From assembly GCA_963765895.1 (NCBI GenBank), contig CAVXZB010000027.1, forward strand, positions 1 to 57,002: a DNA stretch of 57,002 bases, read 5' to 3'. The number at the start of each line of letters is the position of its first letter. The first letter of the stretch is position 1. Below are positions 5,874-49,580 of this stretch, piece after piece. The notes beneath the pieces were generated by a model. That model searched no databases, was not told where the DNA came from, and saw only the letters and a program-made list of their open reading frames with translations. This stretch comes from an uncultured Nitrososphaeraceae archaeon. GTDB lineage: Archaea; Thermoproteota; Nitrososphaeria; Nitrososphaerales; Nitrososphaeraceae. The translations under genes were made by a program, and so were the position numbers.

Positions 5874-6575
5874 GTGAAATTAAGAGACATTACCAGGTAT
5901 CGGGTAATTGAAAGATACTTACGGCAAAGGTCTAAACAGACAAGACAAATTGATTCTTCCTCTTTTACTACTACGGATTCTAAAAATGAATTGGATTATT
6001 ATCATTTTGATCTTACCAAACCTCCAGAGATCTCTGACTACATTAAAAACAGATTTCTTCCCATATTCAGACAGTATAAGAATAACGCTAGACTAAACAC
6101 TCGCAGATTACGTATGTGGAGAGTTTCAATCATCGTTCTGACAATGTTTATGATAATATTTAATGTAATAGTTATATCAGGTAATAATAGCTCAAGTAAC
6201 AGATCCTCTTCAATCATTGCCATGGGAATTGTATCTTCTATTGCTGCTGCACTTATCCTTGGATTTACTGCATTTTTGCAATTGACTAAATCTCAAGAAA
6301 ACTGGCTTTTGTATAGCACGATATCTGAAAAACTAGAACGGGAATATAATCTGTTCAAGTTCAAAGGTGGTCCATATTCTTTATCTGCAACTAATGAACC
6401 AGATGATGCAAACAAAATTAATAAGTTATTTGTAGAAATCGTTGAAAATATTATTCTGACTCAAGGATCAGAACCTAGACCTACATATTCCTCTACGATT
6501 ACGACTGATACTATAACTACTACCAATCACCATGAGCCAACATCATCTCCGACAACAACTGCACAAGAGAAATAG
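5874..6575 (+). CDS. DUF4231 / SLATT-like two-TM protein
   Basis: Two TM helices followed by QENWLLYSTISEKLEREYNLF...PY...LFVEIVENII. Confidence 0.75.
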   Translation: MKLRDITRYRVIERYLRQRSKQTRQIDSSSFTTTDSKNELDYYHFDLTKPPEISDYIKNRFLPIFRQYKNNARLNTRRLRMWRVSIIVLTMFMIIFNVIVISGNNSSSNRSSSIIAMGIVSSIAAALILGFTAFLQLTKSQENWLLYSTISEKLEREYNLFKFKGGPYSLSATNEPDDANKINKLFVEIVENIILTQGSEPRPTYSSTITTDTITTTNHHEPTSSPTTTAQEK

Positions 6576-15805: not shown

Positions 15806-15879
15806 GATTGCCAGCTCTGTCATCATAGTATCACAAGCTGAACTCGTTGGTTTTCTGTAAGGGCTCAGGCCTTAATCCA

Positions 15880-15985
15880 TCGATTTGGAAGGTCGAAGAT
15901 ATTAAGTTCACCAAGTCTGATAGTTTTACCTATCAATAGGATCAGCTAGCCATGAGTAAGTTTGGATAATTTTAATAACTCTGAT
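15880..15985. repeat. element-derived repeat A (convergent gene ends); copies at ~25610-25823, ~27187-27420, ~40520-40677
   Basis: GAT(A/G)TTAAGTTCA...TGATA..TTACCTATC(A/G)ATAG.ATC.G.TA shared by four loci. Confidence 0.85.
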
Positions 15986-20067: not shown

Positions 20068-22374
20068 GTGGTAAACTCAATTACTGAACAGAATGGACCC
20101 CAACCTCAACAATACTTCAGCCATCCTTTAATAAAAAATGATAGCATTGAATTCAGATTATACCAAAATAACATATTTGAGTCTGTCAAAAATAAGAACG
20201 CCCTAGTAATTCTTCCAACTGCTTTGGGTAAGACAGTTGTAGCAATACTTGTTTGTGCGGAAATTCTGTATAATTACAAGTCAAAGAGAGTCTTGATAAT
20301 GGCTCCAACCAAACCTCTCGTATCTCAACATACGACATCATTTTTATCAGGTAATGAAGATGCCTGAAGATAGTATAGCAGTAGTAACAGGAAAGAACTC
20401 TCCTCAATCTAGAAAGGCTATCTGGAATCAAAAAGAATTAAGAATTATTTTTGCTACACCAGAGGTAGTCAAAAATGACCTTATAGAGAGGAGGTTATCG
20501 CTTGATGAATTTGGCTTGTTAGTCTTTGATGAAGCTCATAGGGCAGTAAAAGATTATGCCTATACCTTAATAGCCAAGTCCTACGTTCGACAATCATCAC
20601 ATCCTGTAATTCTAGCCATGACAGCAAGCCCTGGATCAGAGCAAGGCAGGATTGATGAAGTTTGTAATAACCTATCCATTGAAAAAATAGAATACAGGAA
20701 TGAAGATGATGTAGATGTAAAGGAGTATATCAATACTATCGATACGACTTGGAAATGGTTTACTATTCCTCAGGAGTACAAATACATTAGTACAAGTCTT
20801 CGTGCCATGCTTGAAGACAAACTTCAGTTTCTTATAAAAAGAGGACTACTGATAAAAAAACATCCGAAGTGGATATTTAAGAGCGATCTCCTTAAACTAG
20901 GAGAAGAGATCCAGTATAAGATAAATGCAAGCCGGGAAGAACTAAGAGGATCACTTTATTCAGCCTTGGTGCAACAGTCGTCAGCCCTTACCCTTATGTA
21001 CTGTGCAGAACTTATAGAAAGCCAAGGATCTCAATCATTAAAAGCCTTTCTAGAAAGGATTGAAAGGGATGGTGGCAAGGCTAATCGATCCCTGCTAAAT
21101 GATAATAGGATAAAGGAGATTCAAGCACTTTTAAACAGTCTAAAGATAGAGCATCCTAAAGCAAAATATCTTGTAGAACATTTAAATCAATATTATGACA
21201 CATTTCAGAACAATAGGAATAATAACGATAGCAGTAAAACTAAGTTGACTAGCACAAGACCAAAAGCTCTTGTTTTCACCCATTATAGAGACACTGCAAG
21301 AAAGGTTGTCGAAATTTTGACTGAAAATGGCATAAAAGCATCAAGATTTGTAGGCCAAGCAAAAAGAGAGATAGATATGGGAATGGACCAGAATGAACAA
21401 TCAGCTATTCTGCAATCCTTCAGAGATGGAGAATTTGATGTCTTAGTAGCGACCTCTATTGCTGAGGAAGGACTTGATATTCCACAAGTAGATCTAGTTG
21501 TGTTTTATGAACCAATACCTAGTGAGATAAGATATATACAGAGAAGGGGAAGAACTGGACGAAAGTCATCTGGTAGTGTTATAATACTTGCAGCAAAGGA
21601 TACCATTGACGAACGATATCTTTATGCAAGCAAGAGACGTATGGAGAAGATGAAACAGATACTTTCTACCGTCAACATGACGTTAAAGCCTGTTCAGAGA
21701 GCAGATATCCTAGCAGATCCCATGACAGCTGATGAGATATCATCTTTTGAATTCAAGCCTACGATATTAGGCAAAGGGGTTGATAAGAAGCTATCATCCA
21801 CTATTGGCATCACAAGAGATGCTGATGATTTACTACCATCAATAGCATCAACTAATCGTTTAGTCAGAACAAGGGCAATAGATAGTGAGGATAATGACAA
21901 AAATAAGAAAATTGGCGGATTGCTCTCGCATGAGTCTGGTACCGCTACTAATGGATTTAGAAAAGCGGTGGATTCATGCAGCGAAAAGAATTCATACATT
22001 AATAGCAAAAAGTGGAAGACAAGCATTAGATGTAGATATAATTCAAGAGACCTTTGCATTTGAAGATTCTGTTTTACTAGAGGCATTGAATAAGCTTGAA
22101 AAACTTAATACGATACAATGGCTTGATGATACACGAGTAATCCTCTCTGAAAATTTGGCAAAGGTTGCTGGCGAGCACAATTGATGTGTATGTTGAAAAA
22201 ATCGTACAAGGTGGAGCATTAGTTCTAGTAAACGAAAAATGGCATGCTAGATTAAATCACTACGATTATGAAGGTCCACGAGAATTACTTAGAAAAGGAT
22301 CGGAATTCAGAGTTGTAGGCGAACTATATCATGATGAAGGTGTGTTTAGTCTCAGAGTAAAACAGATAGTATGA
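20068..22374 (+). CDS. hef: Hef/Mph1 (FANCM-like) SF2 helicase without nuclease domain, split by ~3 indels
   Basis: LPTALGKT, APTKPLV, DEAH, TASPG, ATSIAEEGLDIP, QRRGRTGR. Confidence 0.85.
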
Positions 22375-22544
22375 AATTATGAAAATCAGGAAAAGACCGG
22401 TCGTCTCTCCATCCAGAAAATGTTTTTAGTGCGACATATTTCATAACATAAATAGAAGGCACTATTTCCGAGATTAATAAATAACTTAACTGAATTCTTT
22501 TATATTGTAGCATAAAATTAGTAATATAATAACTACAGGCATAA

Positions 22545-22730
22545 TTGAACGAACTAAGATGTTCCCGCTTCGACGAAAATATTCAATTGAGTATACATGC
22601 TTGCACTTGGTATTGTGGCGCGCATAATCTGGGCATGAACAAACTCATCCAGATTGAGCTGCAATCCTTCATTATTTACAATATCGTTATATTCGAATCA
22701 GAAGTTGGTATTGCTGCCTTGTTCAACTAT
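22545..22730 (-). pseudogene. SWIM zinc-finger relic (paralog of 13915-14158)
   Basis: IAAQSG*VCSCPDYARHNTKCKHVYSIEYF. Confidence 0.75.
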
Positions 22731-22776
22731 TGAAATACAATGAGCATTTATTATAACTGAGATAACCTCAGTCCTA

Positions 22777-23042
22777 ATGACACGAGTCATGATGACAGTT
22801 GTGTTAATATTAGTTCTAGGATCGTCGGTAGGAAACGTGAGTGCAAAGAAGAGCAGTGATGATTGGATAAATAATCCTGATCGGTGCTTTCAGGCTGGAA
22901 AAGACGACGGAAGGAATAGTGGATTCAGTCAGTCGGAATTCGATACATGTGGGTCATCTTATGAACACGGATTTGTGAAAGATGCCTATCAGTAGATGGT
23001 AACACACGAGATATATGTAATAGTGCGGAGGACGCAGGTTAG
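22777..23042 (+). CDS. secreted array protein 1 (frameshift near 22980)
   Basis: Signal peptide; CFQAGKDDG...CGSSYEHGF / GCLSVDGNTRDICNSAEDAG*. Confidence 0.65.
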
Positions 23043-23080
23043 GCTTGGCGAGCATACACAATGGTAAAGGATGTAGTTCA

Positions 23081-23651
23081 ATGAAGACAATCATTGCAAT
23101 ATCAGCCATTAGTATGTTAGTGTTAGGTATGTCAATCTTGCCGACGAGTGTGTATGCACAAGGCAGCGCATATACCAAAGGATACAAAGACGCATTATGC
23201 GACGCGGTATCATGTAATGGACATGGATACAAACCAAGTTGTCCAGGTGATCACAGTAGCGAATACTGCAATAATTATAGAGACGGGTATGCTGCAGGAT
23301 GGGATGCTTCAACGAATGCTAATAGTAATGGACAACAACATATCAACCCACCACCAACTCAGCAGTACCAATCAACACCAGACTGGACCCTAACTGTCAA
23401 TGTTGTGAGAGTACCATTCGGGGAGTCTACTCTTAATCTAGAAGTCCGGGGTCCGTTTGGTAGTCATCTTTATGATAGCATACCAAACTCTGAGAGTCCG
23501 AGGTACTACATTCAATATGCCAGGTGATCAGTATCCTACAGGTTATTACTACAGGGTATGCGTGAGCAGCAATATTGTCGGATTTTTCTTGCCTCATTGT
23601 GTGCGATATGTCCACGGCGAAGGGGACGAGTCAGTGAACGTGCGGCCATAG
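23081..23651 (+). CDS. secreted array protein 2 (frameshift near 23500)
   Basis: MKTIIAISAISMLVLGMSILPTSVYA; YTKGYKDA..CPGDHSSEYCNNYRDGY; C-terminal beta-rich domain. Confidence 0.7.
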
Positions 23652-23716
23652 CAATGCGGATCAGGCAAAGTTTTGCTAGACGAGCAGTTACCACGACCCC
23701 TAGCGGTGAGTGGACA

Positions 23717-24010
23717 ATGAAAGTCCTAGTGAGCGCAATGACAATCGTGGTGCTAATGATAGGTGCGCAGAGTGTATATGCACGTCATTTGACGGATGCA
23801 GAACAGGAAGCTGGTATAGGAGCTGACAAACAAGGTATACCTTGTACATTCGGTCCTTCTCACGATGAATGTCGTGATCAATTCCTTGAAAGAACAAATA
23901 ACTTACCTACACTTCCGTCAAATCAGCATTATGGAGAATGTGAAGCAGTTGGACCTAATAACGAATTAGGATGTGATATTCTTAACGACGACGGGTCACC
24001 AAATCCATGA
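23717..24010 (+). CDS. secreted array protein 3
   Basis: MKVLVSAMTIVVLMIGAQSVYA; four Cys. Confidence 0.75.
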   Translation: MKVLVSAMTIVVLMIGAQSVYARHLTDAEQEAGIGADKQGIPCTFGPSHDECRDQFLERTNNLPTLPSNQHYGECEAVGPNNELGCDILNDDGSPNP

Positions 24011-24273
24011 AAGTAATATTGGGCGCAATTGTGGTCCTAACACTAATGATAGGCGCGCCATTAATGTATGCACCTAGCGATTCGTATAAGAAAGGATATT
24101 CAGAGGGTGTGAGAGATGGGCATAATATGATATTCCATCAGGCTAAATTAATAGACTATGATGGTGTGCATCATACATTTGGCCAGGGATATGTGGATGG
24201 ATGGAGATCAACATGTAAAGAAATGGGATTAGATACTGGCCCTGATAGCGGCTGTGAGCTTTCTATGGACTGA
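24007..24273 (+). CDS. secreted array protein 4
   Basis: ATGA overlap; MKVILGAIVVLTLMIGAP; YKKGYSEGVRDG...FGQGYVDGW. Confidence 0.75.
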   Translation: MKVILGAIVVLTLMIGAPLMYAPSDSYKKGYSEGVRDGHNMIFHQAKLIDYDGVHHTFGQGYVDGWRSTCKEMGLDTGPDSGCELSMD

Positions 24274-24288
24274 AGTAATGATTGACCT

Positions 24289-24684
24289 ATGAAAACAATA
24301 ATCATAACAACAGTTGCAGTTATGGTCCTAGTTGCGTCGCTAGGCGCACAGTCGGTGTATGCAGAGGTCATACATTCTGACCATCCAAAAGTTGATTATC
24401 AATTGGGCTTCAAATGGGGTGTCCGGGATGCACAATTTAAATGCAGTCCCCACTGTAACTCGACCAATGTATACATATGGCATTCGCCTAACGGCTTTAT
24501 CAATCAGACCAATGACTTTATTGATGGATATGTAACCGGATTCTGTAAAGTTGTCGGGCCAGACTCAGGAATGGATGAGCCAGAGGCAGACTTTGACTGT
24601 AATAAAGGGCCACCTTCTGCAGGTTGGATGATAGGGAAGACGATCACAGGTACATATACATCCAAATACCCATCACGGAATTAG
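24289..24684 (+). CDS. secreted array protein 5
   Basis: MKTIIITTVAVMVLVASLGAQSVYA; YQLGFKWGVRDA..C...C..YI..GF..QT..FIDGYVTGFC. Confidence 0.75.
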   Translation: MKTIIITTVAVMVLVASLGAQSVYAEVIHSDHPKVDYQLGFKWGVRDAQFKCSPHCNSTNVYIWHSPNGFINQTNDFIDGYVTGFCKVVGPDSGMDEPEADFDCNKGPPSAGWMIGKTITGTYTSKYPSRN

Positions 24685-24689
24685 GGGAA

Positions 24690-25005
24690 ATGAAAACGAA
24701 AATACTATTTAGCGCAGTTGCAGTTGTCATACTAATGATAGGCGCGCCCAGTGTATACGCAAGCAATGATTTCAGTCCGCTTCCACATGCTAAAGATCCA
24801 CAAGCCGCTTATCAGGCCGGATATGCACACGGCGTAGCTGACGCAAAGGCTGGTTTGTACGGATAGATGTCACTGGTATATATTAGAACCTGGAAAAGGC
24901 TTTGGATTTCATACACAGGAGTTCGTTCAGGGATATATTGCTGCTATGTGTGCGGCGGGTAACGGTAGCGATGCAGATGAGGCAACATGGAGTTGTCCTT
25001 CATGA
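24690..25005 (+). CDS. secreted array protein 6 (frameshift near 24855)
   Basis: MKTKILFSAVAVVILMIGAPSVYA; YQAGYAHGVADA / CTDRCHWYILEPGKGFGFHTQEFVQGY...DADEATWSCPS*. Confidence 0.7.
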
Positions 25006-25030
25006 TACCTAGATTGGAGAGGATGTTACA

Positions 25031-25363
25031 ATGAAAACAATATTAGGAATAGTCGCAGTCATAGCGGTGCTAATGATAGGCGCACCAACTATACAGGCAT
25101 TCGAAGGAACCTCCAAACATGGGTATGATGCTGGATATTTTGCAGCAAAATCAGGAAAGCCATATGATTTTAGTTCAAACCATACAGCAAAGTACAAACT
25201 GGGATATGATTTTGGTTATCGTGATGGTATACAGGATAGTCCATACGACCCAATAAAGAAATACGCGAACAAAGATTCAGAACAGGAGGATGGTATACCA
25301 TACGATGCACAGGGAAGACCGTGTATTTTCGGTCCTGATCATACCGAGTGTCTAGGGCATTAA
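25031..25363 (+). CDS. secreted array protein 7
   Basis: MKTILGIVAVIAVLMIGAP; GYDAGY..HTAKYKLGYDFGYRDG; QGRPCIFGPDHTEC. Confidence 0.75.
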   Translation: MKTILGIVAVIAVLMIGAPTIQAFEGTSKHGYDAGYFAAKSGKPYDFSSNHTAKYKLGYDFGYRDGIQDSPYDPIKKYANKDSEQEDGIPYDAQGRPCIFGPDHTECLGH

Positions 25364-25606
25364 ATTTCGTATACAACCGCGCTGCCTATTTGAACATCTT
25401 TGCAGTCGCATCTGAACTGTGCCTGCTGGTCTGGGCTTGGTCCGCTTGACCAGCTCTTTTTGCCACATTGGCCTTCATACGCCTTACCTATCTGTTTAAA
25501 ACCTGTGCCTAAATCAACCTGTACTTCGCTATGCGCGCCCGCTGGAATTTGGCGTATTACATGGGCAAGACCAATGTTTTTACCTTTAACTGGCCAACAT
25601 TGGCTT
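25360..25606 (-). pseudogene. 5'-truncated relic related to the 12525-13427 family
   Basis: Open frame GKNIGL...SEVQVD...QFRCD..DVQIGSAVVYEI*; its stop overlaps the stop of array protein 7. Confidence 0.5.
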
Positions 25607-25875
25607 ATTTATAACGCTTTTTCCGATATAATTATCCCCGGATGGATGAAAAATCCAATATCTTCAAATGTGTTAAAACTTGCAAGATGAAACTAAATAC
25701 TTAGTTTGCATCCACTAATTGCCACTATCTATAAATATCATCAATTTAGAGTCGATAGATATTAAGTTCATAGCAAGCCCTGATACTTTTACCTATCGAT
25801 AGTATCAGTTAGTCATCAGTAAGTAAGAAAATTTGCTTACCTTTTGGTAACTGTCCAATTTAAATATAATAAATA

Positions 25876-26736
25876 ATGAATAAAGGGGTTATGCAATATG
25901 AAAAATACAGTCAGATAAACTTGTTGGGCACGCTATGTCTAGCCGTAATCCTTATCGTAACTCTTTCATTAACTACACAAGCTGGTATCGCAAATGCGCA
26001 GAACAAAACAATATCCACAGAACCTAATGGGATAAAGGGCCAGATAACAAATGCTACCAAAATAAATATCGTTTTAGTTCATGGTGCAGGAGCTGACGCA
26101 TCTTCATGGAGTAAAGTAATCCCTATTCTACTAGACGCAGGACACAAAGTTATCGCAGTACAGCTTCCTCTCCATTCTCTGGCAGATGATGTATCTACAG
26201 TAAAGCGTGCAATTGATCTATTGGGTGGACCAACTATTCTTGTAGGACATTCATATGGTGGAGAGGTAATCTCAAACGCTGCTTATAATAATCCCAATGT
26301 CAAAGGTCTTGTTTACATTGCTGCATTAGCTCCTAAAGAAGGTCAATCTATCAGTAGCTTCACCGATCCTACCAAGTTTCCAAAAGGCTCTTTAATAATT
26401 GATAGAGGGGGCTTTGCATACTTTAACCCAAATTTATTCCATAATTCATTTTCAGATATTGATCCGACTCAAGCTAAGATCTTAGCCGTTACACAAAAGC
26501 CAATTAACATGTCAATTTTTACTGAAAAATCTGGCCCACCAGCTTGGAAGCAACTTCCGACATGGTATCAAGTATCTGAAAACGATCGCAATATCCCTCC
26601 TGCTGTCGAACGTTTATTTGCAAAACAGATGAATGCTACTACTATCTCAATTCCCTCTAGTCATTTGTCGCTTCTATCTCACCCAAATGAAGTCGCCCAA
26701 TTAATTCTAAATGCAACTAATGGAGTCGTCAAATAG
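25876..26736 (+). CDS. secreted alpha/beta hydrolase (Abhydrolase_6-like)
   Basis: LVHGAGAD, GHSYGG, D...SSH triad; signal peptide. Confidence 0.9.
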   Translation: MNKGVMQYEKYSQINLLGTLCLAVILIVTLSLTTQAGIANAQNKTISTEPNGIKGQITNATKINIVLVHGAGADASSWSKVIPILLDAGHKVIAVQLPLHSLADDVSTVKRAIDLLGGPTILVGHSYGGEVISNAAYNNPNVKGLVYIAALAPKEGQSISSFTDPTKFPKGSLIIDRGGFAYFNPNLFHNSFSDIDPTQAKILAVTQKPINMSIFTEKSGPPAWKQLPTWYQVSENDRNIPPAVERLFAKQMNATTISIPSSHLSLLSHPNEVAQLILNATNGVVK

Positions 26737-27385
26737 CATGACGGAGTAGCGGTATTGGACCTGACAGAACTCAAAGACCTTCATATTATAAGACTGTCTG
26801 CCAGACCGGACATTGACGGCAGTCTTTTATGTTTTATTCAGCACAGGAATTACTATGAATCCTGATTATTGCAACTGTAACGACTTTGAAAAGGCGAATA
26901 GAGATGTATATTGATCGTCTAAGACTCCATCCTATACATTTGATCTCTCAATCCAGAAATCGTTTTTAATCTGATTTATTTCATAACATAAGTGGAAGAC
27001 ATTTTTTTCCGATATACTTATCCTAGATCTAATAGAACGTCCGTTATAATAATCCGATTTGATTTCAGTCCGTTATCGAGCTACCACATTGTACAAGTAT
27101 TGGTTTTCTATTTTTAGATTATTCAGCCTACACATAGGATGCAGCATTCTTGATAATATTTATAATCTGGCATCGCTCCTATCTTATTATAACGCTTTTT
27201 CCGATATAATTATGCTGGACGTGTTAAAAAGTCCGATATTGTCCGGTGTGTTAAATGTATTGCATGTTAACGGAATTAAATACGTGATTCACATCGACTA
27301 ATTGCTACTATCTAGTTATCATCAATTGGGAGACGCCAGATATTAAGTTCATAAGTCATGATAGGTTACCTATCAATAGGATCGG

Positions 27386-27620
27386 CTAGTTATGAATAAG
27401 ATTGGACAGTCCTAATAGCTTCGATTTATTCGCCGCCGGATCTTTGTATTTTATGTGATGCACTATCGACTCCAGATGTACATTTCTTATATCAGGATGC
27501 AATACGCAGTAAAAGAATCCTTGCTTTATAGATACGATGGAATGACATGGGCTCTTATCTAAATCATGTTCTGGAAGTGGTACATGAGGCATAGTCGGAT
27601 CATCATAAAAGAAGTCGGAT
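27386..27620 (-). pseudogene. C-terminal Zn-finger-like relic of an element gene
   Basis: YCVLHPDIRNVHLESIVHHIKYKDP; its end (SKLLGLSNLIHN*) matches SELLKLSKLTHG* at 15947-15985. Confidence 0.5.
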
Positions 27621-40236: not shown

Positions 40237-40765
40237 ATTTTACTGCCGTACTACAAATGCAGTCATAATGGGTGATTGATTTAGTGTTCTCTTTGTATAG
40301 ATATCACTAAGATAGCATTCAAGATTATGAGGCCCCCATCTGCCTACACATCCAGAATTTGCTTTATTCATAGACTACTAAGGGGTATTTTTTCTTTCAG
40401 GTACGGTCATCTTTTTCAAATACTTTGACATAGGTATCATAAGATATCACCTTCAATTCGCCCTTGCTGACCATTTCCTCATACTTGTATTTATATTATG
40501 GATCGTGACCTAATTTTCAGGTGTGTTAAACGTATTGCATTTTAACGGAATTATTATGTTGATTTGCATCAACTAATTGCTACTATCTATAGATATCATT
40601 AATTGGCAAAGTCGACCGATGTTAAGTTCATCATGAGTCCTGATAGTTTTACCTATCAATAGGATCAGCTACCATGACATATGAATTAGAGGATCACACG
40701 AGCTGGCGTGTCTATTACCTGAGCGATGATGACAATGTTCGTGTCATTATAATACAATTAAGGTC

Positions 40766-41148: not shown

Positions 41149-42538
41149 TTAACATCCTTCGAGTATCTTCAATGCATCTTTTTCTCCTTGTTCAATTAGC
41201 ATCTTTATGGAATCATGAGTAAAGTCTGTAGCTTTGCTGGCATAATCCGCTTCCTTACCGGGTACTAGCATCTACGTCAGATGCACGTTCTATTCTTATT
41301 ACCTGTTTTAATGTGAATTTGCCTTTTATTAGATCTTTGTATTTTTCCCGCCTAACTTCTCGTGTTTTACTTTTTTCTTCAGCAATCGTTAGAAACTGCT
41401 CAAACCCATTTTGAAATACCATACCCTCATTTCTATTAGTAAATTTATGTATTAATTGTATGGCGCCAAGCAATGTTTCTTCCAAATCATTGTAGTCTGT
41501 TACAATATCTGTTACCATTTCATCATAGCCAGAATTCCTGTCTGAATATGTTATATCATTAAATCTATCATTAACCCCGTCATAGTCAGTTGGAATAACA
41601 TCTTTTTTGGAAGGATGTACGTTTACTATATATACATCGAGATCTGGAATTTTAGCTTTAACATTATCTACTACTTTAGTCCAATACTCCCTATGTGCCT
41701 GCAAGAGTTCTCTAAATGGTGTATTATTTAAAAAACCTCCATCATAGAAACTTCTTCCACCTATTGCCCTGAACTTATAGAAAATAGGTATCGTACCGCT
41801 TGCCATAACGTGATCAATTGTAATCCCATCACTTTCATACACTGAATTTTCAGAATCATCTTTTGTATGATAACTATCAAATGTCACTGTCTTTCCTTCA
41901 GATACGTCTACACTAATGACAAGTAGACGTGGTTCTCTTCTACTCCAACTAGTGGCTATTCTTAACTTTTCATTATCTTTATCTTTTGAATATCCTTCGA
42001 TGGTATTTTGTAAGGGATCGATATCATGTAGATACCATTTATATAATGGATCTGAATCAGCATACTTGTAATCAACTTCTGCCTCTGGAGCCGAACATAC
42101 GTTTGGAGTTCCTTGCTCTTTGTACGCTTTTACTGAATAATATCTTCTCAGAGCCTCTTTAGATGCCCTAAACATTTTTTGTTTTTCTTTATCATTCAAC
42201 CATTTGCTGATATCAGGAGTGGACGAAAGACCATATTGCTGGTTCCCCCAAAAATCTTCAAGTATTTGTACTGCTTCTTTCCAGCTCTTATGTCTGTTGA
42301 CTACATTGCTTACAAGCACTGCGGCGTTCATTGCACCCATGGAACTGCCTGCAACAATATCAAATAGCGGCCCATTTTCCGTGTCGTTTCCACCACTTTC
42401 AAGAAGCTTTTTACACAACACTTTCAATACACCTACTTCATAAGCACCTAATGCTCCCCCTCCTTGGAGTACCAATGCCCTCTGTCTATCAGGAATATTT
42501 TGGTCCTTAGAGCGTTTTGAAGAATTTTCCTCTGTCAT
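41149..42538 (-). CDS. patatin-like phospholipase (frameshift near C-terminus)
   Basis: LQGGGALGAYE, GSSMG, DGG..NNTP. Confidence 0.9.
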
Positions 42539-48134: not shown

Positions 48135-49580
48135 TTATTCAGAAGAAAATGCTGTCTTATAGATTCCGCTTTGATACAACTGCTTTGCAAATTCGACTTT
48201 ATTCTTACCATCCATATTTCCAAGAGCTGTAATTAGCGCGCGCATCTGAGACTGCATCGTATTAAATTTCCCTTCTATAACTGTCAGTTTATCATCCTTC
48301 TTTTTTTGTTCGTCTAATGTCTCATTGTACGCATCATAAGTTAATACCATCCGACAATGCGCGCAGAACTTGCTGTCTGGTTTATTGGGTTCATTGCAAT
48401 TAGGACACTGCTTTGGTCTTAGCGCAACAGATAGTTTTTGATCCTTTGTAACTATACCATATGCTTCTAACAGACTCTCACTTGCTTCATTTCCAAAATA
48501 GTGAAGATATTTCTGAGGCATATTGGAGTTAGTCGTCCAACCCGCGTACTGACGCAGCGTATGCTCCTTTAGTATCTTGGATTTATCCGTCAATGCGCTA
48601 TGCCTTCTTACATAGGGATTCCATGGCTTCTTCAGTAATTCTTCTATTTTCGCCTTATCTTCTGATGGAACATTTGGATCGCTTAATAATTTCGGGAATA
48701 GTGCATTCTTATAACTACCATAAATCTGTGATAACGATGATATAGCCAGAATTCTACCTATACTCTTACGATTTCCACATAATAAAATCGTATTAGGGTT
48801 TGCCGACTGCGGGTGTTCGTGATTTAAATAATCTTTGATGTATGGGATTGAGTCTATTAGTGGGATGGACCTACTTCCAGTCTTTCCGTTAATTAACACC
48901 TCTGCATATTGTCTATTCCCAGTGGTTTTGAATACAATATCTTTTATCCTCAACTTTAATAATTCATGTGGCCTACAACCAGTATCGCGAGACATAGCAT
49001 GATAACACTTTATTCTTTTAGAAGGGCAATACTTTAGGAATAGCAGATCATCCTCAACTGTCCAAAGATCTGTAGGCTTGTAAATTGATTGTTCTTTTCG
49101 CTTAAGCTGTAATACATTCTGAATCACTTCTGGTTTTGGTCGTTTCCTTGGTTCAATGCCAGGATAATATAACCATCTGAAAAATCTAATCAAATGCATT
49201 CGGTATATATTGTAAGTTCCGATCCATCTATGCATGGGATCTAATGTCTCTGGTTTGCGGTAACTTTCTAGATATGAAATTATATCGTCCCTACTTATAG
49301 CGCTAAAAGGATGATTGCTATTAAATTTAGAGAACGTACATAGTAGTTTAATTACATCGCCTCTGTAGTGATCAGAGGGATTGACCTCCATTCTTAATGC
49401 TTCAATGTAACTTCCTATTGTGAATGCATTATCTTTTGATATTGCATAAAGTAACTTGGAAAATTCAAGACTTAAGCCTGAGGAGATGTCTTGAATTTTT
49501 CTTTCTAAAGTAATACCATGATGACGTTCAGTATTGATCTTGTTTTGCCTTTCTGCTGTTAATGCAATATTGTTCCTCAA
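48135..49580 (-). CDS. tyrosine recombinase/integrase with C-terminal zinc ribbon
   Basis: TGCRPHE (R), GKTG (K), YVRRHSA (R), AGW, KYLH (Y); CPNC...FCAHC. Confidence 0.95.
   Translation of the reverse strand: MRNNIALTAERQNKINTERHHGITLERKIQDISSGLSLEFSKLLYAISKDNAFTIGSYIEALRMEVNPSDHYRGDVIKLLCTFSKFNSNHPFSAISRDDIISYLESYRKPETLDPMHRWIGTYNIYRMHLIRFFRWLYYPGIEPRKRPKPEVIQNVLQLKRKEQSIYKPTDLWTVEDDLLFLKYCPSKRIKCYHAMSRDTGCRPHELLKLRIKDIVFKTTGNRQYAEVLINGKTGSRSIPLIDSIPYIKDYLNHEHPQSANPNTILLCGNRKSIGRILAISSLSQIYGSYKNALFPKLLSDPNVPSEDKAKIEELLKKPWNPYVRRHSALTDKSKILKEHTLRQYAGWTTNSNMPQKYLHYFGNEASESLLEAYGIVTKDQKLSVALRPKQCPNCNEPNKPDSKFCAHCRMVLTYDAYNETLDEQKKKDDKLTVIEGKFNTMQSQMRALITALGNMDGKNKVEFAKQLYQSGIYKTAFSSE

Follow-up and report, generated by a model that had tools for sequence, protein, structure and literature searches.

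The window analysed here is the whole of the 57-kb contig C27 of an uncultured Nitrososphaeraceae genome (G000; 4.9 Mb in 88 contigs, about 36% G+C, completeness 88%), and its positions 22777–25363 hold an array of seven small genes, g1 to g7. The array is best explained as a single locus belonging to a multigene family of small extracellular proteins that has expanded in one genus and evolves by birth and death, its products being exported by a Sec-type (general secretory) route, a reading to which we give a probability of roughly 0.7. According to this reading each gene would be translated into a pre-protein with a family-specific Sec-type signal peptide, composed of MK, a hydrophobic core often including LMIGA, and a terminal (S/A)x(Y/F)A. 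Once exported and cleaved, products of 45–110 residues would fold outside the membrane, stabilised by one to three disulfides, and the main module, domain A, is predicted to be two helices with G-x-x-x-G faces followed by a small hairpin, which a conserved Cys pair probably pins. Comparison of the copies shows that the arrays grew through tandem and segmental duplication, that gene fusion, module loss and rearrangement gave rise to differing module orders, and that many copies are decaying. In this genome the leader core of otherwise old paralogues has stayed, or has become, identical at its synonymous sites, which points either to short-tract homogenisation or to the spread of one leader onto genes that had diverged.

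Seven small open reading frames (ORFs) on the plus strand were confirmed within 22777–25363, matching the co-oriented genes of the initial annotation. Their spacing begins with a 4-bp overlap (g3/g4), as had been described, and reaches 85 bp (g1/g2, counted to the ATG start), or 65 bp between the extension of g2 and g3. By modules the array consists of G, D-E, L-B-C, L-A, A, L-A and L-H-B, where L is the leader. The first gene, g1 (22777..22995), encodes a putative small secreted protein of the G type, with a leader type of its own that is not LMIGA, and shares 83% identity with C19:302203. A frameshift near 22981–22984 cuts it short, and an out-of-frame remnant of its conserved C-terminal tail, with two further Cys, lies at 22983..23039 (plus strand), as seen from the translated frame and intact homologues in contig C19 and in the congeneric genomes G006 and G002. 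Matches to module hidden Markov models (HMMs) divide g2 (23081..23527) into a leader, module D with four Cys, a linker and the first part of module E, which is beta-rich and the continuation of which (E2) was found in another frame at 23499..23651, on the same strand, by a jackhmmer match and by comparison with a paralogue on contig C12. Module matches further show that g3 (23717..24010) joins an LMIGA-type leader to modules B and C, with two Cys each, and that g7 (25031..25363) has an LMIGA leader, a helical GY module H and a C-terminal module B with two Cys. Between these two, g4 (24007..24273), the start of which overlaps the g3 stop, has an LMIGA leader and a divergent domain A with two Cys (HMM E-value 4.1e-7), g5 (24289..24684) a leader of LGAQSVYA type, a full domain A with four Cys (E-value 1.1e-25) and a C-terminal tail, and g6 (24690..25005) an LMIGA leader and a domain A which, from the ORFs and the domain HMM, is frame-split into 24690–24866 and 24838–25005.

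Two cases of module sharing pointed out earlier were recovered. The EQE..PC.FGP.H.EC module is N-proximal in g3 and C-terminal in g7, with 65% identity over 26 amino acids (E-value 6.8e-6), and the long Y..G..D..C..C..YI..GF..GY..C..C module is common to g5 and g6, the copy of g6 being split by the frameshift. The accompanying claim that the mature parts are unrelated overall was borne out for modules G, B and C, which profile–profile comparison with hhalign did not relate to domain A, but it fails for g4, g5 and g6, which have the same domain A, and probably for g2, whose module D is a probable distant relative of domain A judging from the profile alignment (probability 87.7%, E-value 3.4e-6, 43 columns).

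The extent of the family was determined with tblastn and HMM searches iterated on all six-frame ORFs of G000, and the further modules were defined by jackhmmer. Domain A comprises about 69 residues with the landmarks YQSGFxHGVxD, YI..PGKGF, F..GY..GFC and SDADEA.F.C, and was found 44 times in 40 ORFs, 24 of the matches being full length and 20 partial. Modules B and C, both with two Cys, occur in seven ORFs each, module D, typically with four Cys, in 11, the beta-rich module E in three and module G in 12, and module H was found in g7 only. The leader and modules A, B, C, D, E and G occupy altogether 34 genomic sites, 11 of which have at least four features; about 12 are multi-gene arrays, and the array of the window is the richest. 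None of nine window translations had a match in Pfam or NCBIfam, nor did any of the nine match in PADLOC, and PHROGs gave only weak matches of unknown function over leader and N-terminal stretches (best E-value 2.7e-4, on the g7 signal peptide). The domain alignment was without a conserved stretch of 7–10 columns. Some contig ends of G000 overlap each other (C41/C43 and C13/C44, 98.5–99.3% identity over 5.9–8.8 kb), which points to assembly redundancy or strain mixture; the effect on the family counts is small, as 43 of the 44 domain A matches are unique sequences.

Outside G000 the domain profile matched six of six genomes of the same genus (3–17 matches each vs 41 in G000) and 14 of 24 genomes of the same family, and found nothing in 16 other families of the order (0 of 16). 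A larger sample gave matches in 57 of 201 family genomes, representing ten of 18 genera, and the 48 best matches all came from this genus. Matches in other genera mostly covered profile positions 1 to about 60, often within ORFs of several hundred residues. When 1.84 billion representatives were scanned, 574 proteins were found at E ≤ 1e-3 and 153 at E ≤ 1e-10; the named relatives were all annotated as 'hypothetical' and belonged to Nitrososphaeraceae or Nitrososphaerota, and the Atlas lists Nitrososphaerota clusters without Pfam. The same holds for the 19 homologues of g3, all 'hypothetical' and all from Nitrososphaeraceae. Orthologues of g3 in other assemblies are 57–81% identical over 97–100% of the query, and those of g3 and g5 across other metagenome-assembled genomes (MAGs) 57–91% identical; a single-protein query for related loci returned two named MAG loci. 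No close relatives of g5 or g3 were found on viral contigs by a method that sees close relatives only. The earlier statement that no such system has been described agrees with this: as far as the literature was searched, the family, built from a hitherto undescribed two-helix domain and several short Cys modules, is new and no description of it was found, although the supplementary gene-family tables of PMC7603488 may list it.

The N-termini of g1–g7 open with M(K/T); some 14 hydrophobic residues follow, and the leader closes with a small-x-small motif, for instance VYA or VSA. The seven translations and 21 aligned leaders all have the positive n-region, the h-region of 10–15 residues and the small residues at −3 and −1 that are typical of signal peptidase I substrates. 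A leader HMM matched 22 of 1346 signal-peptide-like ORFs, picked by a crude hydrophobicity filter, and the leader is therefore regarded as family-specific. The sequences support the view of the initial annotation that the genes encode secreted, Cys-containing, modular proteins with a common export leader.

The AlphaFold model of mature g5, made with 89 sequences, had a predicted local distance difference test (pLDDT) score of 82.5 and a predicted template modelling score of 0.81, and consists of two long helices (residues 8–26 and 50–64) and a hairpin (69–78). Nearly invariant columns of domain A are G19, D22, Y37, F45, F52, G55, Y56, G59, C61 and C79. Both helices appear to carry a Gly-x-x-x-Gly face, and the conserved Cys pair probably ties helix 2 to the hairpin, the pairing being deduced from the near-invariance of both Cys rather than from the model itself; 21 of the 22 aligned domain A copies have two or four Cys. 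Foldseek found no match for the g5 model in the PDB at E ≤ 0.001, the best Z-score of a wide VIA-align search was 4.0, for annexin-fusion chains and within noise, and a profile search of PDB sequences gave no matches at E ≤ 10. For mature g3, AlphaFold gave only a poor model (pLDDT 58.6).

Parts of the array recur elsewhere. The gene order G-D-A-A is present on C27, at C19:302k and on G006:C223, and G-B-A-A on C25. Positions 22772–23360, comprising g1 and two-thirds of g2, are 87% identical to C19:302198–302793, and 23141–23360 are 91% identical to C12:5486–5708. The recurring partial gene orders together with the 87% segment match indicate that the arrays are paralogous segmental copies. No tandem DNA repeats were found inside the array genes, and the duplications are therefore old; one weak 11-bp repeat is located at 25800–25825, and Rfam gave no matches at E ≤ 1 over 22000–26200.

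Reuse of modules in different orders, as proposed earlier, was recovered in the combinations L-B-C, L-H-B, L-B-Alike, L-A-C-A, L-C-A and L-B-A. L-A-C-A is found at C19:3764–4411, and L-C with a partial A at C19:300043 and also in P0189 and P0191. L-B-Alike at C75:14014–14313 has the reverse order of the L-H-B of g7, contig C25 carries B-B'-Alike, and L-B-A occurs in the congener G006. At C75:12293–12868 two neighbouring genes are fused with the internal leader kept. Compared with the C75 locus, g7 has 79% DNA identity in the leader and 87% in module B, but an additional module of about 200 bp separates the two in g7. For one leader to end up on unrelated modules, it suffices that neighbouring genes fuse and then lose modules. 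These sequences show module shuffling to be real. The duplication breakpoints in the DNA comparisons are at 23141, the leader/mature junction, and at 23360, in a low-complexity linker, and gene order and content differ between congeners.

The leader itself has a history that differs from that of the mature parts. LMIGA is present in g3, g4, g6 and g7 and SVYA in g2, g3, g5 and g6, so that the translations confirm both peptides in the four genes each that had been given for them. The DNA block behind LMIGA, CTAATGATAGGYGC, was likewise found exactly where it had been reported, as the leader core of g3 (23753..23766), g4 (24043..24056), g6 (24732..24745) and g7 (25070..25083), all on the plus strand, against 0.00 matches expected in 100 shuffles. 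The core CTAATGATAGGC is codon-invariant in 21 leaders of G000, with Leu as CTA in 21/21, Ile as ATA in 21/21 and Gly as GGC in 19/21, while the genome uses CTA at 18%, ATA at 40% and GGY at 50%. Codons beside the core vary, and the invariant Gly columns of domain A have mixed codons. Among the congeners the core is rare and codon-mixed: the exact 14-mer block, found 21 times in G000, occurs once in G002 and not at all in the other five congeners, and (L/F)MIGA sites with any codons number 1–8 per congener. The leader DNA of g6 matches 16 other sites in G000 but only 0–2 per congener, each of which has 3–17 domain matches. Because the core is codon-invariant in G000 and not in its congeners, the pattern reflects homogeneity within the genome and not a nucleotide constraint across species. 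It suggests that the leader was homogenised or spread within G000, which could have taken place by short-tract conversion, or because a single leader recently spread to genes that had already diverged.

Among distant paralogues (42 pairs from ten genes) the leader is more conserved than domain A, with 54 vs 33% amino acid and 65 vs 48% nucleotide identity. Close homologues show the opposite: the nonsynonymous divergence (dN) between g5 and its G006 homologue is 0.61 in the leader and 0.116 in the mature part, and between g3 and G002 the values are 0.80 and 0.23. Only five unique congener genes had both a full leader match and a full domain. Decoupled histories of the leader and mature parts are supported by these sequence comparisons.

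Ratios of nonsynonymous to synonymous divergence (dN/dS) were calculated according to Nei and Gojobori for the mature parts of close homologues; seven of nine pairs were usable, and two were dropped with the codon alignment out of register. The values were 0.20 and 0.28 for g1, 0.25–0.57 for the N-terminal part of g2, 0.15 for g5 against its G006 orthologue and 0.28 for g3. This range, 0.15–0.57, indicates real genes under purifying selection and not hypervariable cassettes. Concerning expression, 25068–25400, a stretch that covers g7, is matched with 0–1 differences by contigs from two metatranscriptome libraries (X5 and X6), both of the same study, with the label plant metagenome. Transcription of g7 is suggested by them, with the reservation that RNA libraries can hold DNA.

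The initial annotation had interpreted the array as a recombination-diversified secreted library, in which the leader block anchors cassette exchange and the products serve in antagonism, adhesion or as virus decoys. We regard this as unlikely, although several of the observations fit it. One leader type is found on unrelated mature modules (A, B-C, H-B and a 'GYWTA' type), the core is invariant and the g6 leader DNA widespread in G000 only, the leader of g5 has diverged from that of G006 faster than the mature part, one breakpoint coincides with the leader/mature junction, and gene order and content vary among congeners. The mature parts, however, are under purifying selection and conserved across MAGs, which speaks against a diversified library, and each gene has its own start and leader, so that there is no single expression site. 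No recombinase adjoins the array, and the blocks within the window are direct repeats, exchange between which would delete or duplicate whole genes instead of shuffling them. Nor do the observed breakpoints keep to the leader block, the other one lying in the linker, and the codons flanking the leader core vary. The homogeneity of the leader within the genome partly vindicates the idea of recombination between leader and mature parts, but an active mechanism of diversification was not shown.

Conotoxin-type venom-peptide superfamilies are eukaryotic and combine a conserved signal peptide and a pro-region with diverse disulfide-rich toxins, the mature dN/dS of which exceeds 1. The present family resembles them in that the leader is more conserved than the mature domain among distant paralogues, but it differs in the low mature dN/dS and in that the leader changes faster between the close homologues of g5 and g3. 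The vsa, vsp and vlp loci of Mycoplasma and shufflons have a dedicated site-specific recombinase, inverted sites and silent cassettes without promoter or leader. Like the Mycoplasma loci, the array is a gene cluster with a near-identical 5' leader, a short conserved 5' DNA site and differing mature parts; unlike them and shufflons, all seven genes have their own ATG and leader, the sites are direct and no recombinase gene adjoins.

A further interpretation, to which we give slightly less credit than to the library, would make the 12-nt leader core a homogenised functional DNA or RNA tag that re-attaches one export leader to unrelated extracellular modules, giving a fast-turnover secreted repertoire for dealings with viruses, competitors or plant roots. 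If this were true, it would amount to a prokaryotic counterpart of exon shuffling feeding a secreted repertoire.

As to the role of the products, we favour extracellular modules with a binding or structural task in the matrix or the cell envelope, because the same domain is also built into large surface proteins bearing PKD domains and RTX repeats. A shorter form of domain A is embedded in P0112 and P0113, both with PKD domains and the latter also with RTX repeats, and the short form occurs with TPR repeats in P0145 and P0150. In the large secreted proteins P0112, P0113, P0030 and P0156, all from other assemblies, one or two short-form copies stand between a Cys-rich region on their N-terminal side and, after them, either PKD repeats (with RTX repeats as well in P0113) or a C-terminal domain rich in beta structure. 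The arrangement suggests that surface-protein architectures gave rise to the small arrayed genes or are supplied by them.

Since the proteins are small, secreted and disulfide-containing and their arrays have expanded and rearrange rapidly, they could also be Sec-exported antimicrobial peptides, comparable to archaeocins and directed against competing archaea or bacteria, but we find this improbable. Its sequence evidence is a set of sub-threshold matches to Pfam PF08109 (lactocin 705) in ten of 89 family members (best E-value 0.0051), one of which was located to the first G-x-x-x-G helix; being a 15-residue motif that scores 15.4 bits against a cut-off of 22, the match is taken as motif-level only, and none of the nine window translations matched PF08109 even at E ≤ 10. 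Class IIb two-peptide bacteriocins of the lactocin 705 type have double-glycine leaders and dedicated exporters. The family is like them in having a short helix with a G-x-x-x-G face and unlike them in its Sec-type leaders, and no immunity, ATP-binding cassette (ABC) exporter or modification genes were seen adjoining the array. The presence of the domain in large PKD surface proteins and the purifying selection, with no signature of an arms race, also argue against a bacteriocin-like function. Antagonism may be a role of the products, with the sub-threshold motif match as its sole support.

About equally improbable is a reading of the array as, for the most part, the decaying remains of former genes, a cluster of pseudogenes that no longer serves a function and lies in a degraded region full of repeats. 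It is supported by the state of the genes: g1, g2 and g6 are frame-broken in this assembly, 20 of the 44 domain A matches are partial, and five of the 41 domain-profile matches in G000 contain stops. The flanks fit it as well, with dispersed repeats, the SWIM relic and a multi-copy helicase in truncated form, and ORFs of at least 100 amino acids, counted from stop to stop, make up 53% of the contig (60% of the genome). Against it, four genes (g3, g4, g5 and g7) have unbroken frames, as has g6 in a strain with more than 99% identity, and dN/dS lies well under 1. Contigs from RNA libraries extend over g7, and the close packing of the genes would suit an operon, as would the purine-rich motifs ahead of the g6 and g7 starts. 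Effector clusters of filamentous fungi and oomycetes, which encode host-directed small secreted cysteine-rich proteins of eukaryotes, likewise combine lineage-specific tandem expansion of genes without known domains, a location in repeat-rich, gene-sparse, rearranging regions and frequent pseudogenisation; the organism here, however, is an archaeal chemolithotroph. Frameshifted family members are common in G000, and its low ORF share may reflect low coding density with much gene decay, or assembly indel errors.

The conserved Cys-bearing tail of g1 is out of frame, and the DNA alignment has a 1-bp gap relative to the C19 paralogue. A frameshift near 23495–23505 is implied for g2, as the minus-strand paralogue ORF on C12 has both parts in one frame. 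The g6 ORF ends at 24866 and its domain resumes in the +1 frame at 24838–25005, the cause being one extra T in the TTT run 24854–24856. Near-identical soil-metagenome DNA contigs from runs X1 and X2 of one study have one base fewer at 24854, one of them with four other differences in 617 nt, and minus the extra T both pieces of g6 share one frame; the g6 homologue of the congener G005 is also single-frame. The extra T may be a genuine mutation or an error of the assembly. Run X2 also has a DNA contig that spans 23692–24001, taking in most of g3, with no differences. Contig cover of the runs has gaps, for instance 24065–24155, and in the RNA runs g1. Two 'joints' in run X2 were considered as variants of this array and rejected, as they are paralogous C12-like and C75-like loci.

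Finally, ammonia oxidisers need copper, and the His, Asp and Cys positions that are common in the consensus of the domain, together with the extracellular location, would suit a metal-handling (e.g. copper) module, but this is highly improbable, as neither His is nearly invariant (the columns are G, D, Y, F, G, Y, G, C and C), the even number of Cys fits disulfides, and no similarity to known metallochaperones was found in Pfam, NCBIfam or PDB structure and sequence searches.

Several points weigh against the explanation as a living family of exported proteins. Secretion, cleavage and disulfides are predicted from sequence, and the binding or structural role from the co-occurrence of domains. 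Orthology of the arrays between congeners is not proven, and their flanks differ. The codon invariance of the leader core stems mainly from three synonymous sites in related sequences, which are not an independent sample. The RNA-library contigs come from one study, in which g7 is well covered and g2 and g3 only via diverged relatives, and with three of the seven genes frame-broken the array may be partly non-functional, or the assembly may contain indel errors.

Large-genome soil ammonia-oxidising archaea are thought to have grown by gene duplication, and the family offers a concrete, countable example of duplicated genes in these archaea, with dozens of copies in one genus. Its putative new extracellular domain has a fold predicted with confidence, to which no solved structure is related, and the family is represented in metatranscriptome libraries. 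It opens a way into the secretome and cell surface of soil ammonia-oxidising archaea, which have hardly been studied, and the leader provides a clean case for concerted evolution of a signal-peptide sequence in an archaeon.

The arrays sit in plastic, repeat-rich regions. A dispersed repeat, either repeat A or a second one, lies within 2 kb of 11 of the 34 family sites, the site of the window included, compared with 2.2 ± 1.5 under random placement, and 11 was reached in none of 1000 random placements. Repeat A is about 220–280 bp long, with 57 BLAST matches in the genome and 13 copies aligned. The copy next to the array, truncated on its 5' side, is located at 25604..25824 (no strand assigned) between g7 and an alpha/beta hydrolase gene. 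Further copies in the window are at 27183–27400, 40563–40671 and 15878–15961, and the repeat holds TTTATAA-like boxes.

The array had been described as lying between relics of an integrative element. The relic with a SWIM-type CxC..CxH motif, an ORF on the minus strand (22486..22644) overlapping a short dispersed repeat at 22571–22665, and repeat A are indeed present, but an integrative element was not shown, and the view of the array as element-borne is not supported, given the 34 sites on many contigs and the occurrence of the family in all six congeners. No tRNA was found within the window. None of the 20 larger window ORFs scanned was a recombinase, apart from a weak Phage_integrase match at 48135–49580 (E-value 3.6e-4, below cut-off), 23 kb from the array, and a non-exhaustive border search found no integrase with attachment-site or tRNA borders around the array. 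The ORF with the Phage_integrase match has 481 amino acids and weak zinc-ribbon matches in addition. The 95-bp core of the SWIM relic has about nine copies in G000 and many in the congeners, and looks like a decayed multi-copy, possibly mobile, gene.

Upstream of the array, a plus-strand ORF (20354..22063) has C-terminal helicase domains (Pfam Helicase_C and related domains). The whole stretch 20354–22394 contains Helicase_C and helical-bundle domains without the N-terminal motor part, and is itself multi-copy, with 86% identity to C49:6478–8436 and two copies each in G002 and G003. The C49 copy also precedes family genes and another adjoins an array in G002:C114, and the helicase stretch stands beside arrays of the secreted family in three places. 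The other larger neighbouring ORFs scanned included the downstream alpha/beta hydrolase, a luciferase-like monooxygenase and a flavoprotein. Elsewhere on the contig, accessory-looking genes, to which the 481-amino-acid ORF is also counted, encode a two-transmembrane SLATT/DUF4231 protein and a patatin-like phospholipase (window 5874–6575 and 41255–42538).

A second putative secreted family of G000 has the mature start G/K-x-YW-(T/S)-A..YH(L/I)F, with copies at C19:300454–301038, C76:12060–12578, C49:9307–9573 and C19:1988–2569. Three of these four copies have an LMIGA-type leader and C19:1988–2569 a different one, and the C-terminal part of this family resembles the module E continuation on C19:7336–7875.

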